Shown here: positions 4,520 through 28,165 of the stretch, piece after piece | How positions within the stretch are numbered: position 1 is the stretch's first letter | How the letters are laid out: every line of letters starts with the position of its first letter | From: a phage | Sequence record: PZ295659.1 | Direction: 5' to 3' (one strand) | Length of the DNA: 64,000 bases | Notes under the pieces: model-generated | The model's database searches: none | The model's input: the letters and a program-made list of their open reading frames with translations, nothing else | What the model was told of the DNA's origin: nothing | Program-made: the position numbers and the translations under genes

Positions 4520-4807
4520 CTAAAAGAAACTTTTTTCGGTATTTTTTCCACTGAACCAAACCGATTTCGGAATTTTCTGTGATTTTTCAGATTTAAGTTT
4601 CTCTTCCTGTTCTTTCTTATATGCATCCTTGTCGTACTGGAACAACTCTAGGGCATTCTTTTGTAGACGGTCTAAGGTAATTAAGGCTTTAGTTTTTCCT
4701 TTCAAGGAAGAGTCCTGGCGAACCTCCTCGCTATATTGCATCGTAGAACTAACCATACGATGAGCATAGAGTTCTACTGCGGCTTTAATTTTTTGCATAA
4801 AATCCAT
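4520..4807 (-). CDS. hypothetical protein
   Basis: 95-aa ORF, ATG start. Confidence 0.4.
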   Translation of the reverse strand: MDFMQKIKAAVELYAHRMVSSTMQYSEEVRQDSSLKGKTKALITLDRLQKNALELFQYDKDAYKKEQEEKLKSEKSQKIPKSVWFSGKNTEKSFF

Positions 4808-15094: not shown

Positions 15095-15424
15095 TTATAC
15101 TCTAGGCTTTTGAGCTTGTTTGGTATTGGATTCCCATGCGGCTTTGGTAATTTTGTTAGCGGCATAACCAAAGGCACTAGATAGAACACCTTTAGAGTTG
15201 AATACATCCAATCCAATAAGTACACCGGCTGTGTTAAATTTAGGAGCAAAGTACGCATTAGTTTTAGAAAGAGCTTTTTTCAATTCAGGGTCTTGAACCA
15301 AGCCATCAAAAACGCCTTTACTATTTACTTTATATGTTACTTTGGGATTTTTAGCTTCTTCGATAGCAGCTTTCTGTTCCGCAGATAATGTAACTTCAGT
15401 GATAAACTCTTGATATGTTTTCAT
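15095..15424 (-). CDS. ipII: internal head protein with capsid-targeting sequence (ipII-like)
   Basis: N-terminus MKTYQEFITE, the T4 CTS cleaved by gp21 after LxE; 109 aa. Confidence 0.6.
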   Translation of the reverse strand: MKTYQEFITEVTLSAEQKAAIEEAKNPKVTYKVNSKGVFDGLVQDPELKKALSKTNAYFAPKFNTAGVLIGLDVFNSKGVLSSAFGYAANKITKAAWESNTKQAQKPRV

Positions 15425-15465: not shown

Positions 15466-16044
15466 TTAATTACCACGGGCTGCATTAGCAACGGCATAAG
15501 CGTACTGAACATTAGCGTCTTTAAACGTACCTTTAGAGGTATCTATTTCTGCCTTAAAGCCGCCTTTAGCCATAACATCGGCAAATTCTTTACGGAAAGC
15601 CATTGCATCAAGACCTTTCCATGATGATTTGTGCTTGGCGAATTCAAGACCAGCGTAGTTGACAGCCTTAGCTAATTTATTATCAATAACCCATTTACCG
15701 GCTTTAGGCACAAACTTCGGGCCTTTTTGTTTAGAGAACAGTTTTAAATTCCAGCGACGAAGATCACTGTCGGCTTTAACAAAAGCTGCGTCTAAGTTAC
15801 TAGCAACAACATCTTCAATATGAGCAAATTTAAGTCCGTCAACTTCAATATTTAGATCGTTACGCCAGCGAAGTCCTTCCCAAGCGAAGGCTTTAAAATC
15901 AGAAGCTTTTGTGGCTAGATATCGTTCAATTGGAGCAGTTTTAGGGTCAAAGCCGTTTCCACCACGATAAGTCCACTCGTCCTTATTAATGCCTTGAGCT
16001 TTTCCTGCAAAGGCCTCGGCGATAAATTCTTTATACGTTTTCAT
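15466..16044 (-). CDS. ipIII: internal head protein with capsid-targeting sequence (ipIII-like)
   Basis: N-terminus MKTYKEFIAE; 192 aa, similar in size to T4 IPIII. Confidence 0.6.
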   Translation of the reverse strand: MKTYKEFIAEAFAGKAQGINKDEWTYRGGNGFDPKTAPIERYLATKASDFKAFAWEGLRWRNDLNIEVDGLKFAHIEDVVASNLDAAFVKADSDLRRWNLKLFSKQKGPKFVPKAGKWVIDNKLAKAVNYAGLEFAKHKSSWKGLDAMAFRKEFADVMAKGGFKAEIDTSKGTFKDANVQYAYAVANAARGN

Positions 16045-16169: not shown

Positions 16170-16367
16170 CTACTTTAGGCTTGCTACAACATAAGCAATT
16201 TCACTACGTTTTGCATAGGTGTTGATTTCTTTACCATCGCCACCTAAGAAAAAATACCCATTACGTTTTAATGAGCCAAAGTCTTCCGCATCACCAATGA
16301 AAGCTTTAACTTTAAATTTAGGACCTTTGGCATCTGCTTCAGCGATAAATTCTTGATACATTTTCAT
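16170..16367 (-). CDS. small internal-protein-like ORF with capsid-targeting sequence
   Basis: N-terminus MKMYQEFIAE; 65 aa. Confidence 0.5.
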   Translation of the reverse strand: MKMYQEFIAEADAKGPKFKVKAFIGDAEDFGSLKRNGYFFLGGDGKEINTYAKRSEIAYVVASLK

Positions 16368-16845: not shown

Positions 16846-17127
16846 CTATTTTTCTGAAGCGCCCGAAATATATTTTTCAAGACGTTGTTTCATCAGCGAA
16901 CCGTTCTTGGCGATTTCTTCCGGTTTATCACACATACGCAACAAGGCTTCAAGCTTAACGATATCACTGGTACGTTCAAATTTGCGAGTATCTATCTTAC
17001 TAGCAAGTTCAGAAATACGTGCTAATAGACTTTCAGCTTCAACCAAAGCTGCACCTAGCTTAGTTGCAAATGTGTCAGTAGCTTCGTTAAGAATAGATTC
17101 TGATAAAAATTCACTATATGTTTTCAT
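16846..17127 (-). CDS. internal-protein-like ORF with capsid-targeting sequence
   Basis: ATG at 17127 gives [10 protein letters not shown]...; 93 aa. Confidence 0.5.
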
Positions 17128-17612
17128 ATATACGCTTTCCAAGTTCCTGTTTTAAATGTTGAGATTACGCGTTTCGCACGATTAGGTGTCTGACGATACC
17201 ATTTAGATTGGGCTAGATTTACTGCCGCTTCGTCCCAACGTTTCTGTTGAAGCATACGAAGAGAATTAGTAAAACCAGCGACGCCTGCTACACCCATTTG
17301 GAAGACCATATTAACCAATGCACATCGACGAACTGCATCTAAAGAATCATATACCGGTTTAAGTTTAGCATTACCCAAGATTCCGCGAACGGCTTTATCA
17401 ACGTCTTCATTAAATAGCTTTTCGGCCTCATCAAGGGTAATTGTACCGTTGCATTTACGTCCGATCATTCTGTCAAGTTCAGCTTTAGCTACGGCTAAAG
17501 ACGGGTTCTTTGTTACTAAATGACCTATGCCAATCGTCCAAAAGCCTTCAGTGTCTTTGTATAAAGTCAGTCTAAGACCTTCGTCATTACGAAGCATTTC
17601 AAATATATTCAT
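17124..17612 (-). CDS. e: T4-type lysozyme (endolysin)
   Basis: [32 protein letters not shown]... strongly matches T4 lysozyme including catalytic Glu11, Asp20 and Thr26; track start at 17624 is GTG. Confidence 0.95.
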
Positions 17613-17646
17613 AATACCTCCCACGTTTATAGGAGGTATTTATTAC
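17613..17646 (-). promoter_or_regulatory. inverted repeat sequestering the lysozyme SD, with a late-promoter-like AATAAATA inside the 5' arm region
   Basis: Minus strand AATACCTCC-TATAAACGTG-GGAGGTATT-ATG: 9-bp stem pairs the GGAGG SD; resembles the translational control described for T4 gene e. Confidence 0.55.
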
Positions 17647-20893: not shown

Positions 20894-20900
20894 TTAATTT

Positions 20901-20940
20901 GATAGGACTACTATAACATAGCCCTATCTTGTTGTAAACT
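20901..20940 (-). promoter_or_regulatory. early-promoter-like element with palindrome GATAGGACTA...TAGCCCTATC around the -10
   Basis: gtaaac at 20934-20939. Confidence 0.45.
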
Positions 20941-20944
20941 GTTT

Positions 20945-21142
20945 TTAGCAAGAATAACTAGATGATACCCAGCCTTGAACAGTAATACTATTATTTGATA
21001 CCGAGATTGCGTTCTGGAGATTCAGACCTGCGTTATCTTCAATCCATAATGTAACTTCTTCGCGTTCTTCTGTTGCAATTTGGAACAGGTTTTCCAGGGC
21101 AGCTACTGCCGTACGTACAGCACAATCTAATTCACGAGACAT
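20945..21142 (-). CDS. hypothetical small protein, member of a tandem paralog trio (C-terminal GWVSSSxxC)
   Basis: Ends QGWVSSSYSC. Confidence 0.4.
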   Translation of the reverse strand: MSRELDCAVRTAVAALENLFQIATEEREEVTLWIEDNAGLNLQNAISVSNNSITVQGWVSSSYSC

Positions 21143-24405: not shown

Positions 24406-24669
24406 TTATTTCATATTATTGAAATAATCTTCCGCATCAAAATCGTTATCATGGTAAACTTTGGTAGACGATTTGGCGTAGCCTTCAGCCGAGAACATAT
24501 TAATCACAACTTTAATTGTATACCACTGTCCGTCTTCATTACCCATTACTGCATAGGTTTCATACACAGGGTGTTCAGGACCGATAACTTTAATATCATT
24601 CACCGTACGTCCGAAATCTTCTGGAACGCATTTCATAAAGAAGTTGAACAGTTCACCGTAATTATCCAT
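24406..24669 (-). CDS. hypothetical protein
   Basis: Start moved to ATG 24669 (MDNYGELF...) with GGAG SD; longer track ORF overlaps promoter element. Confidence 0.45.
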   Translation of the reverse strand: MDNYGELFNFFMKCVPEDFGRTVNDIKVIGPEHPVYETYAVMGNEDGQWYTIKVVINMFSAEGYAKSSTKVYHDNDFDAEDYFNNMK

Positions 24670-24699
24670 TTCATTCTCCAAGTTTTTCTGTATCGGTAG

Positions 24700-24740
24700 T
24701 TGATAGTTGTATAGTACCACAGAAGAACAGGGATGTAAAC
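24700..24740 (-). promoter_or_regulatory. early-promoter-like element
   Basis: gtaaac at 24735-24740 and -10-like tatagtacc. Confidence 0.35.
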
Positions 24741-24807: not shown

Positions 24808-24835
24808 CCAAAAAGCCCTATCTAAATGATAGGGC
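24808..24835 (-). terminator. rho-independent terminator (AGCCCUAUC-loop-GAUAGGGCU + U-run) downstream of the IP-like gene
   Basis: 9-bp perfect stem 24813-24835, T-run on minus strand. Confidence 0.6.
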
Positions 24836-24840
24836 TAAAA

Positions 24841-25404
24841 TTATTTACCTAGTTTAGTTATTATAGCTTCGGCAGCAGCTTTTAGCTTAGATGCAGTGTT
24901 AATACGATTTTTAATTTCAGTATACGCATCGCCAAGAACATCAAGGCTATCAGAATAAACACTTACACTATTGCGTTCGCTATTTGAAATAGAACCTTTA
25001 GTTTTACGATCAAAATCAGTGTACACGTCTTGAAGATCACGGGCTGCCTTCTTTGCATCATCCAATGCATCAAGAGCTTTATTCAAAGCATTGACATATT
25101 TTTTAGTGTCAAACATATTCTTAGAAATTTTAACAGGTGCACGTTCAGGAGTAGCTAAGGCGGATTTAGGAACCTGCGTGCCAGATGCCAGTTTCTTAGA
25201 AATTTTGAAAAACGCTTTATTGAAACTATTTTCTTGACTCATCGTAAAAGAACTAGTATCGATGTTATACATTTCAATAGCTTTAGCTTTCCACTTAAGA
25301 AAATCGCCACGGTCTTTTGGATCCAAGTGGAAGAATACTTTAGTAAGATCTGCTTCAGATGGTAATTTTGCTGCTTCTGTTAAAAATTCGGCATAGGTTT
25401 TCAT
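24841..25404 (-). CDS. internal-protein-like ORF with capsid-targeting sequence
   Basis: N-terminus MKTYAEFLTE; 187 aa. Confidence 0.5.
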   Translation of the reverse strand: MKTYAEFLTEAAKLPSEADLTKVFFHLDPKDRGDFLKWKAKAIEMYNIDTSSFTMSQENSFNKAFFKISKKLASGTQVPKSALATPERAPVKISKNMFDTKKYVNALNKALDALDDAKKAARDLQDVYTDFDRKTKGSISNSERNSVSVYSDSLDVLGDAYTEIKNRINTASKLKAAAEAIITKLGK

Positions 25405-25489
25405 TTAAAATCCTTGAAATAATTTATCGGTTTGTTATTAATTATTTATTACTTTGGTATTATTAGTAACAGCATTCTCTGAGTGATTC

Positions 25490-25522
25490 AAACTAAAAAG
25501 CCCCAACCTTTCGGAAGGGGCT
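25490..25522 (-). terminator. rho-independent terminator, same hairpin as at 9395-9416
   Basis: AGCCCCAACCTTTCGGAAGGGGCT followed on the minus strand by TTTTT. Confidence 0.7.
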
Positions 25523-25640
25523 AAGCCTTGCGGCAACCTTGTCGGGGTTCCACCTGCTAAGGCAAGTGTTTGTACGAAACGCCGGGATTCGAACCCGGTT
25601 ATTAAGCAGTTGACGCTACTCAATATTTTTAAAAGGCCAT
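25523..25640 (-). ncRNA. putative small stable RNA with tRNA-like T-arm, upstream of the terminator
   Basis: Minus strand CCGGGTTCGAATCCCGG T-arm-like hairpin and further helices with no credible ORF; reminiscent of the stable RNAs in the T4 tRNA cluster. Confidence 0.25.
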
Positions 25641-25833
25641 ATCTCGACCATATCCGAACGTTCCGTCAAAAACGCTACTCGGCTTACGGCAAAGATATTT
25701 CCTCGAATCGATAATTCTGTGCGCCGTTTCTGCTGTGATGTAAGGGGATATTAACAAATCATAAAGATTTATTAAGACCAGTCCTTACGCAGGGAACATC
25801 AGTCCGACGACTTACCGGTAGCGACCCGGCTTC

Positions 25834-26178
25834 TTATTTTGGCATATCATCAATTTGCTCTCGACGCCGACGCCATAGATTAATCGCTTCATTAGCACAT
25901 TCGGCGTTTGGTATATGGCGGCAATAATATAATGATTCGCGTTTCTGGAACCGATGTTGCAACGGGATTTCGTTTAAAAGGTCTTTACGGTCAAAGTATT
26001 CAAAACTAGTTAACCCGGAACGATTTTTAAGGAACTTCCAATGGCCGAATTCATTTTGAACATAGATGTAATCTGCATGTTGGTATAACAAATTAATCAA
26101 TCGGTCTGAAATAACTGTATCATATTCGTTAAAATAAAACGTTAAATCATGAACTACCAGATAAATATTGCCTTTCAT
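25834..26178 (-). CDS. hypothetical protein next to the tRNA genes
   Basis: Start moved to ATG 26178 (MKGNIYLV...) to avoid overlap with tRNA-Arg. Confidence 0.4.
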   Translation of the reverse strand: MKGNIYLVVHDLTFYFNEYDTVISDRLINLLYQHADYIYVQNEFGHWKFLKNRSGLTSFEYFDRKDLLNEIPLQHRFQKRESLYYCRHIPNAECANEAINLWRRRREQIDDMPK

Positions 26179-26196
26179 ATTTTCCTCACTTAAAGT

Positions 26197-26273
<77 letters not shown>

Positions 26274-26279
26274 AATATA

Positions 26280-26353
26280 TGACCCAGACCAGATTCGAAC
26301 TGGTAACCTTTCCCTTATGAGGGGACTGCTGCTAACCGTTGAGCTACAGGGCC
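26280..26353 (-). tRNA. tRNA with CAU anticodon (Ile, lysidine-type, or Met), no encoded CCA
   Basis: Manual fold: acceptor GGCCCTG/CTGGGTC with one mismatch, anticodon loop CTCATAA, T arm ACCAG-TTCGAAT-CTGGT. Confidence 0.7.
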
Positions 26354-27621: not shown

Positions 27622-27828
27622 CTATTCACCTTTTGCAATTTTATCCATAACGATAGCGATTAAGCCGATTAGAAATGCTACTACCAATGAGATAGAATTT
27701 TCTGTTGTTGTCAGTAGTCCGCAAATGAATCCTACAAACATCGAAAAACTAAAAGCCATTGAAGCAATTACTACAGCAACATTACGAATCAGTTCAGCGC
27801 GTTTCATTTTATTTCTCCATTTACTCAT
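27622..27828 (-). CDS. hypothetical small membrane protein
   Basis: 68 aa, two hydrophobic helices. Confidence 0.4.
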   Translation of the reverse strand: MSKWRNKMKRAELIRNVAVVIASMAFSFSMFVGFICGLLTTTENSISLVVAFLIGLIAIVMDKIAKGE

Positions 27829-27835
27829 TTGATTT

Positions 27836-27874
27836 GATAGGACTACTATAACATAGTCCTATCAGCATGTAAAC
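27836..27874 (-). promoter_or_regulatory. early-promoter-like element with perfect palindrome GATAGGACTA...TAGTCCTATC
   Basis: gtaaac at 27869-27874. Confidence 0.45.
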
Positions 27875-27877
27875 TAC

Positions 27878-28165
27878 TTACAGAAGAGTTTTTGCAATAA
27901 TTTTAAGCTGAGCTACAGAAATATGCTTAGCTTTAAACAGTGCAGTCTCTTCAGCCGGAGAGATAACAATAGTAGCGCCATCTTTCTTAGCAGACCATCC
28001 ATCCCCTAAGTAAACAGTACCTTTTACTTCTTCGCCGTCAACCAGACTAATCATTGGTTTACCCTCGCGTCCTTTATTTGCTTTAATAACTTCAGAAGTA
28101 AGGGTTGCTTCGGTCAGAGTAGAAACGTTAGCAACAGGTGATATAAATTCTTTAAATGTTTTCAT
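27878..28165 (-). CDS. ipI: internal head protein with capsid-targeting sequence (ipI position, next to 57B)
   Basis: N-terminus MKTFKEFISP...; 95 aa; location as T4 ipI. Confidence 0.55.
   Translation of the reverse strand: MKTFKEFISPVANVSTLTEATLTSEVIKANKGREGKPMISLVDGEEVKGTVYLGDGWSAKKDGATIVISPAEETALFKAKHISVAQLKIIAKTLL

Follow-up and report, generated by a model that had tools for sequence, protein, structure and literature searches.

Why would a T4-like phage carry a separate open reading frame of 187 codons between its tRNA genes and the genes distal to the lysozyme gene e, at a site that is empty in T4, and what could the product of such a gene do? The question is posed by an ORF found in the window, by which we mean the entire 64,000-nucleotide stretch of phage DNA analyzed here (PZ295659.1). 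The original prediction, derived from the sequence alone, portrayed this ORF as an isolated transcription unit with an injected-protein signal, suggestive of a cargo gene acquired horizontally. As discussed below, comparison of the locus across T4-like phages upholds part of this picture but assigns a different history to the gene.

The gene and its neighborhood

The ORF was found where it had been placed, although on the minus strand, with the ATG at 25404 and the stop codon ending at 24841, and its product starts with MKTYAEFLTE. The 2.5 kb around it are 95.5% identical to RB69, and the phage is an RB69-like member of the genus Mosigvirus. Every gene of the region, this one included, is on the minus strand, in the order (following the RB69 annotation) gene 1, 57A, 57B, ipI, tRNA.4/.3/.2, ORF151c, tRNA-Met, tRNA-Arg, ORF150c, the rnaD/rnaC-like stretch, the 187-aa ORF and e.8. 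The predicted location between the e-distal genes and the tRNA region is thus borne out, with e.8 downstream and the two tRNAs and the rnaD/rnaC-like RNA upstream. The features of the neighborhood are as follows.

27878-28165, minus strand: ipI (Pfam IPI_T4, 1.3e-50)
26280-26353, minus strand: tRNA-Met, upstream of the ORF
26197-26273, minus strand: tRNA-Arg, upstream of the ORF
25839-25492, minus strand: rnaD/rnaC-like stable-RNA stretch of 348 nt, 92% identical to T4, upstream of the ORF
24841..25404, minus strand: coding sequence of 187 aa, predicted mature part residues 11-187, match to PHROG 2280
24739-24711, minus strand: early-type promoter of e.8 (TTTACA-17-TACTAT), directly past the downstream terminator of the ORF
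24406-24720, minus strand: e.8 (PHROG match), downstream of the ORF

The tRNA complement here is small, with only two genes (Arg-UCU and Met-CAU; 26197-26353) compared to eight in T4 and twenty in PG7, and the homolog of ORF150c (130 aa, 25834-26226) overlaps the 3' end of tRNA-Arg, as called, by about 30 nt. An Rfam search with the rnaD/rnaC homologs (25492-25839, minus strand) returned no match, so that the T4-type stable RNAs appear to be without an Rfam family.

Could this be a decaying or otherwise non-functional ORF? In the RB69 reference, the gene is broken into ORF149c and ORF148c by a 1-nt deletion at ORF position 371, and in a few records and contigs it is truncated. This explanation is nevertheless contradicted by the bulk of the data: tblastn detects the ORF in 165 phage records, 164 of these at 95% amino acid identity or higher, and it is intact in about 160 records at this level of similarity, with Escherichia, Shigella, Yersinia, Citrobacter and Salmonella among the hosts of the carrier phages. 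Carriers include PhAPEC2 and ST2, in which the protein is 100% identical, as well as RB14 and the BASEL phages ChristianSchoenbein, Paracelsus and KarlGJung. Furthermore, the coding sequence differs from that of RB14 at 19 of 564 bases, which amounts to 15 synonymous versus 3 non-synonymous codons and implies strong purifying selection. The probability of decay is, in our estimate, close to nil; the 187-aa ORF is a real, selectively maintained gene rather than a chance ORF, even if its product is hypothetical or left unannotated in each of the database records examined. In Escherichia phage vB_Eco_F26 (OP870145.1, 70380-71290), the gene matches in two pieces that extend over 911 bp instead of 564 and are annotated as two proteins, which suggests an insertion of about 350 bp within the gene.

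A capsid targeting sequence at the N-terminus

The clue to the function of the gene comes from its first ten codons, which were thought to encode an injected-protein signal. The decapeptide MKTYAEFLTE is to be compared with MKTYQEFIAE, the capsid targeting sequence (CTS) of T4 IPII and IPIII, and with MKTYKEFIAE of the IPIII in the window; the T4 string is also printed in a preprint. According to a review that summarises Mullaney and Black (PMC9026906), packaging, also of foreign proteins, requires no more of IPIII than its ten N-terminal residues; within this CTS, targeting depends mainly on residues 4 and 7, and prohead-protease cleavage on residues 8 and 10. The ORF has Tyr4 and Phe7 at the targeting positions and Leu8 and Glu10 at the processing site, with Thr9 between these and Ala11 after them, so a CTS-type signal with determinants at positions 4, 7, 8 and 10 is indeed present:

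25375..25404, minus strand: CTS, codons 1-10, with a predicted prohead-protease cut after Glu10 (L-T-E / A)

Inspection of the 187-aa sequence revealed no second L/I-x-E site.

The same pattern recurs throughout the family of homologs described below. In all full-length members, position 4 is Y or F and position 7 is F or I, whereas position 8 is L or I in 33 of 33 and position 10 is E in all but one of the 33. Positions 4 (Y/F), 6 (E/D), 7 (F/I), 8 (L/I) and 10 (E) are retained in nearly all members, including homologs that are only 20-30% identical to the window protein, and among eight representatives of subfamilies, the decapeptide is 58% identical in pairwise comparisons, against 37% for the whole protein. 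The PG7 member of the family begins with MLNFKEFITE, unlike the proteins of the two classical ip loci in the same phage (MKTYQEFINE and MKTYNEFLNE), so the motif seems to have been maintained within the family rather than simply copied from ip genes.

These observations bear on the possibility that the product is a late cytoplasmic protein that is never packaged, its CTS-like N-terminus being either a leftover or a side effect of recombination among the starts of ip-type genes. Virion association is a prediction, and the ribosome binding site together with the first codons (CAAGGA...ATGAAAAC), which the gene shares with the ipI and ipIII of the window, could serve as a linker for recombination. 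Such an origin is hard to reconcile with the retention of the decapeptide at the functional positions in homologs whose DNA has diverged completely, or with the PG7 sequence, which points to selection and not to recent copying; in addition, ten CTS residues of T4 are enough to package foreign proteins (PMC9026906). We therefore view the cytoplasmic explanation as improbable and, judging by the pattern of conserved residues, take the N-terminus to be a genuine CTS-type decapeptide.

A six-frame scan of the window detects the CTS motif only at ORF starts, five in number; together with ipI (MKTFKEFISP), these make six CTS-type genes, or six candidate injected proteins in the window versus three in T4. 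Apart from ipI and the 187-aa ORF, they are located near denV and e:

15095-15424, minus strand: CTS-type ORF of 109 aa (MKTYQEFITE)
15466-16044, minus strand: ortholog of IPIII (MKTYKEFIAE)
16170-16367, minus strand: CTS-type ORF of 65 aa (MKMYQEFIAE)
16846-17127, minus strand: CTS-type ORF of 93 aa, wedged between e and denV

Terminators and a putative late promoter

The elements that surround the gene are these:

25495..25521, minus strand: upstream hairpin GCCCCUUCCGAAAGGUUGGGGC followed by U5, the 3' end and terminator of the rnaC-like RNA, homologous to the trailer hairpin of T4 rnaC
25443..25450, minus strand: late-promoter-like octamer AATAAATA, matching the T4 late promoter TATAAATA in 7 of 8 positions
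25411..25415, minus strand: Shine-Dalgarno sequence AAGGA, read off the sequence 6 nt ahead of the ATG
24810..24836, minus strand: downstream intrinsic terminator AGCCCUAUC-AUUUA-GAUAGGGCU followed by U5, a perfect 9-bp stem recognized both by folding and by the terminator scanner

The original prediction of a strong terminator on each side holds. The downstream stem-loop (24836-24814, with the T-run extending to 24810) folds with a free energy of -14.8 kcal/mol, and not a single one of 200 shuffled sequences was as stable. The upstream hairpin (25521-25495) reaches -16.3 kcal/mol (z -2.5) and is weaker than its T4 counterpart (-21.6) because of two internal mismatches; the same 2x2 mismatch caused it to be missed by the simple terminator scanner. 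Between the window and RB14, the loop of the downstream terminator is inverted whereas the stem is unchanged: on the gene strand, the window reads CCCTATC-ATTTA-GATAGGG (24814-24836) and RB14 reads CCCTATC-TAAAT-GATAGGG (approximately 4571-4597 of the RB14 locus).

The upstream element that had been attributed to the gene can now be specified as the octamer at 25450-25443 together with AAGGA at 25415-25411; from the octamer, a late transcription start is predicted near 25437. On composition alone, this 7/8 variant has a chance of about 5% of occurring. In all ten family loci that were compared, an ATAAATA core ends 28-39 nt ahead of the ATG, with a probability of chance occurrence in this interval between 0.2 and 5% per locus, and the gene strand of the 64-kb window contains ATAAATA in only 8 copies. 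The base that precedes the core is T in four of these loci, G in three, C in two and A in one, namely the window. In the six loci that were inspected closely (window, RB14, ESh15, PG7, Marfa and AnYang), the core invariably comes after a terminator hairpin, with some 45 nt between the two in the window and RB14 and directly in the other four. Position -13 of late promoters is poorly conserved, being commonly A or T, in most of five phages that include RB69 (Nolan et al., PMC1524935); the list of predicted RB69 late promoters in the same work has no entry at the position of this gene.

The site homologous to the late promoter of gene e likewise has AATAAATA in the window against TATAAATA in T4, where two copies of TATAAATA are found upstream of e. 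Downstream of AATAAATA in the window (17612-17644, minus strand) comes a hairpin, CCTCC...GGGAGG, and the ribosome binding site of e overlaps with it. In the classical T4 arrangement, the start of e is exposed in late transcripts only, and the layout in the window matches this arrangement.

The ipI and ipIII genes of the window share the CAAGGA context ahead of their start codons with the 187-aa gene but have early-type promoters (GTTTAC...TAnnAT) and no late core. Upstream of the 187-aa gene, the scanner identified neither a sigma-70 early promoter nor a MotA middle promoter; one MotA-like box, AATGCTGTT, was considered and rejected for lack of a properly spaced -10 element. Elsewhere in the window, segments of 45-75 nt (27826-27879 and 20898-20945) each match four or five places of the RB69 locus at 80-88% identity and are probably repeated early-promoter/stem-loop modules of the kind proposed for modular shuffling in T4-type genomes. 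With a single gene enclosed between two terminators, the locus can be read, in agreement with the initial view of it, as an insulated single-gene unit.

Gain, loss and exchange of the gene

T4 was believed to lack a gene at this position, and this is the case: only 284 bp separate e.8 from rnaC, and the site is likewise empty in T2 and T6. No T4 ortholog with a non-injected role was found here, the kind of observation that had been named as counter-evidence. An empty site is present also within the genus of the window phage, in the Mosigvirus phi25-307, the flanks of which are 96-97% identical to the window. What is gained or lost appears to be a compact unit:

24810..25494, minus strand: cassette of promoter, gene and terminator, about 685 bp, present or absent between phages

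In the empty sites of T4 and phi25-307, GGGGCTTTTT is joined directly to GGTATCTA(A/G)GCCTTTC (with a longer left side, ...GGTTGGGGCTTTTT joined to GGTATCTA), whereas in the filled sites of the window and RB14, GGGGCTTTTT is followed by the approximately 685 bp that end with ...GATAGGGCTTTTT, after which comes the shared GGTATCTAGGCCTTTC. The left junction falls on the upstream rnaC-type hairpin, with the repeat GGGCTTTTT, and the right-hand copy of this repeat is the 3' half of the downstream terminator, so that the cassette is enclosed by a 9-nt direct repeat, GGGCTTTTT, made up of the 3' halves of the two terminators. Recombination between terminator sequences, leading to gain or loss of the cassette, would fit such a layout. 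Shortly past the cassette (about 24795), some 63 nt (TGGACCTCTCTAGGC...TTTCCTCTCC) that are present in T4, RB14 and phi25-307 are absent from the window, a second small deletion between short CCTTTC/TTTCC repeats.

The alleles themselves also seem to have moved. Although the window phage belongs to Mosigvirus and RB14 to Tequatrovirus, their genes are 96.6% identical in nucleotide sequence, compared to 69-88% for the flanking genes, which fits lateral exchange of the allele. Most Mosigviruses carry another allele at this site, encoding a protein of 206 aa that shares 24% identity with that of the window. Among its carriers, ESh15 is a verified Mosigvirus, and JS09, moskry and p000v are phages that we take to be Mosigviruses. 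This second allele is matched at 90% or higher in 72 records, and its identity drops to 66% in Dhakavirus JS98 and to about 60% in Kagamiyamavirus EcS1, a gradient that looks vertical.

Does this pattern make the gene a one-off, foreign cargo gene lodged where T-even phages normally have nothing? The clean 685-bp indel with the 9-nt direct repeat at its bounds and the near identity of the allele in two genera against much more divergent flanks are what such an acquisition could leave behind. The same arrangement of terminator, late promoter and gene is, however, found at the same position in many genera, and this synteny contradicts the idea.

A syntenic family across T4-like phages

Homologs of the window protein are hard to reach by routine searches. 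A word-indexed search retrieved only relatives at least 90% identical, and an exhaustive HMMER search of 1.84 billion representatives gave a single distant family member (P0013; 31% identity, MITFNEFLNE), with the rest being short fragments and one weak match to a repeat protein. With P0013 as an intermediate, tblastn extended the set to 351 phage records, and the profile search collected about 30 diverse members. The matches from the profile and phage tblastn searches are family members only, and wherever the source could be identified, it was the genome of a T4-like phage; neither these results nor the near-empty search of the representatives sits well with a foreign source.

The family is represented in Tequatro-, Mosig-, Karam-, Marfa-, Dhaka- and Kagamiyamavirus as well as in unassigned contigs. 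We compared ten loci, namely, the window, RB14, ESh15, PG7, Marfa, AnYang, EcS1 and three metagenomic or unassigned contigs, and in all ten the gene comes after tRNA genes. In each of the six loci with an identifiable downstream gene, this gene is e.8 (annotated in RB69, RB14 and PG7, assigned by a PHROG match in the window and a Pfam match in AnYang, and deduced for ESh15 from how large the gene is and where it lies in comparison with RB69). Divergent homologs, with 20-30% identity, occupy the post-tRNA slot in Karamvirus PG7, Marfavirus Marfa, Dhakavirus AnYang/JS98, Kagamiyamavirus EcS1 and Mosigviruses such as ESh15. This synteny gives both slot and family an ancestral look, with T4, T2 and T6 as the phages that lack the gene; what moved seems to be the allele. 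Comparison of the tRNA-proximal region across T-even phages, one of the checks suggested along with the original prediction, thus exposes both the filled and empty sites and the conserved synteny; of the proposal that the gene is horizontally acquired cargo, the indel polymorphism (the empty site of phi25-307) and the exchange of the RB14-like allele survive, whereas foreign origin does not and must be considered very improbable. Most simply, the sequence comparisons can be read as follows: the locus is old and syntenic, exchange between genera brought an allele of Tequatrovirus type into the RB69 subgroup of Mosigvirus, probably in that direction, and in some lineages, T4, T2 and T6 among them, the site was emptied or never filled.

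The aligned family members consist of the CTS-like decapeptide, a helical N-terminal domain, a variable linker rich in Pro, Ala and Lys, and a helical C-terminal domain; the linker is long in most alleles and nearly absent in that of the window. In one subfamily (P0040-P0045), the CTS and the N-terminal domain are combined with an unrelated C-terminal domain (...GLKVRGKYGSI...), an apparent domain swap inside the family.

The protein product and its relation to known internal proteins

After a cut of the 20.8-kDa precursor behind Glu10, the mature protein would comprise 177 aa, with a mass of 19.6 kDa and a pI of 9.5 (9.6 for the IPIII of the window). An AlphaFold model built on a 25-sequence alignment has a mean pLDDT of 80, with low confidence at residues 1-11 and 81-89; the helices of the N-terminal domain (approximately 17-73) are joined through a linker that is disordered (74-100) to a bundle of three helices at the C-terminus (101-186), most of which is modeled with pLDDT of 90 or above. 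Going by this model, the mature product would be an all-helical, basic protein of two domains. The search for homologs and structural relatives, another of the checks proposed at the outset, produced a wider family and a helical two-domain model but no informative match to a fold or a characterized family. The full-length match to PHROG 2280 (E 1.6e-53, residues 1-181 against positions 1-178 of the 178-position profile) tells nothing of function because this PHROG is without functional annotation; Pfam gave only sub-threshold helical matches (cytochrome b562, 0.0055, and ALIX), and the NCBIfam, PADLOC and PDB sequence searches gave no match.

Among the known internal proteins, the closest in general appearance is IPIII (Ip3). 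The T4 protein and its ortholog in the window (15466-16044) have 193 and 192 aa versus 187 aa here; all are basic (mature pI 9.6 vs 9.5), start with a CTS that has L/I-x-E at positions 8-10 and are non-essential, and there is a weak extra resemblance over residues 11-25. The mature parts are, however, without detectable homology: hhalign aligns only the N-terminal 25 residues with T4 IPIII, at a probability of 30%, and only 41 N-terminal columns with IPII, at 14%. IPIII also differs in locus (denV-e rather than tRNA-e.8), in its early-type promoter, at least in the window, where the 187-aa gene has a late-type motif only, and in its known target, the GmrSD variant of ECOR17 (PMC12373910). T4 IPI (PF11634) and its ortholog in the window (27878-28165) likewise share with the 187-aa protein a CTS-type N-terminus, the paradigm of an injected protein and a polymorphic locus by the tRNA region, but IPI has 95 aa, is encoded on the other side of the tRNA cluster and contains the IPI_T4 domain, for which the 187-aa protein gave no match in the same search that identified ipI of the window at 1.3e-50.

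A further parallel is Bas37_0260, which, set beside the 187-aa protein by description rather than by sequence, is also an unannotated CTS protein that was recognized by the N-terminal motif alone and is non-homologous to IPI, IPII and IPIII. It differs in being encoded at the classical ipI locus and in having a function demonstrated by experiment.

Possible function

Taken together, the conserved CTS with its cleavage motif, the conserved late core, the basic charge and the dispensability and polymorphism of the gene argue for a protein that is loaded into the prohead, trimmed by gp21 and carried in the head. Like the ip genes, this gene is dispensable and polymorphic, as indicated by the empty sites in T4, T2, T6 and phi25-307 and the 1-nt deletion in the RB69 reference. 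We propose, with a probability of roughly 0.6, that the product is an internal (injected) head protein of the T4 type, made late, packaged into the prohead and trimmed by the protease, that probably counteracts host defense and belongs to a third ip locus. Under this scenario, late transcription would start at the gene's own gp55-type promoter, with the terminators insulating it from the early tRNA and e.8 units; the 10-residue CTS would dock the protein on the scaffolding core of the assembling prohead; gp21 would cut after Glu10 (L-x-E), so that what stays inside the head is a basic, helical protein of 177 aa with two domains; and this protein would exit with the DNA at the next infection to neutralize, by analogy with CTS proteins of known target, a first-line host defense that acts on the incoming modified DNA. 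Late transcription, packaging, cleavage and injection are steps that we infer; the anti-defense target is speculative and comes from the analogy. Literature searches for virion proteomics or transcript data on family members (fPS-90, fHe-Yen9-01, JS98, LC53, RB69 and in general) found none, and the literature covered has no mention of the locus tags RB69ORF149c, RB69ORF148c, RB14ncORF136c and Shfl2p135.

Ip1, Ip2 and Ip3 each inhibit a different GmrSD variant (PMC12373910), with IPIII being needed on ECOR17 (PMC9391042), and Bas37_0260 inhibits McrBC (bioRxiv 10.1101/2025.11.20.689424). Each of the four CTS proteins whose target has been identified thus acts against type IV restriction, and for this reason, an anti-defense role is rated the most likely. 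The literature speaks of two Ip loci (PMC12373910); the 187-aa gene is outside both of those described (57B-tRNA.4 and denV-e), but these are the places where known members happen to lie, not a functional requirement.

Several points count against a packaged anti-defense protein. The octamer of this allele is a 7/8 variant, the published RB69 list has no late promoter here, and similarity to IPIII and IPII beyond the CTS is weak. Moreover, the classical ip genes are hypervariable, whereas this family is more widely conserved and keeps its synteny from genus to genus, so that its role could be more general than that of a strain-specific restriction inhibitor. The main rival to the anti-defense role is, accordingly, a conserved protein of the head interior or associated with DNA (condensation, ejection or end protection) that is delivered by the CTS and contacts DNA through the P/A/K-rich linker. 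Synteny in at least six genera, the pI of 9.5 and the long Pro/Ala/Lys-rich linker between two helical domains in most alleles would all be at home in such a protein. Yet the gene is not needed for head function, given that T4, T2, T6 and phi25-307 are viable without it and that the RB69 reference carries a frameshift; moreover, the 20-30% identity between genera and the one replaced C-terminal domain look more like an arms-race protein, and the window allele is almost linkerless. On balance, we consider a head or DNA-associated role unlikely, though less so than a cytoplasmic one.

A variant of the packaged anti-defense hypothesis would take the wide conservation at face value: a conserved late injected protein at a third ip locus of most Tevenvirinae genera, directed at something other than GmrSD or McrBC, be it a different first-line defense or a general step of DNA entry, with the allele swaps and the replacement of the C-terminal domain as the record of an arms race. 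We offer this more specific version only tentatively, as a doubtful though not far-fetched one.

Implications

The protein is best filed as a member of a new, unannotated family of CTS-bearing internal proteins at a third locus. A relative could be contained in the 1994 study of Repoila et al. (Ip4-Ip12), which reportedly dealt with the ipI locus. If the proposed assignment is correct, the two ip loci that are now counted would be joined by a third, occupied by a family without a name. Among sequenced T4-like phages with uses in therapy and biocontrol, several hundred carry a member of this family, but the model phages T4, T2 and T6 do not, which may be why it has been overlooked. Nature has already supplied the material for tracing its role: near-identical phages differ in having a filled site, an empty one or a swapped allele (the window phage and PhAPEC2 vs phi25-307 vs ESh15), and these are ready isogenic-like pairs with which the host factor that the protein would counter could be sought.
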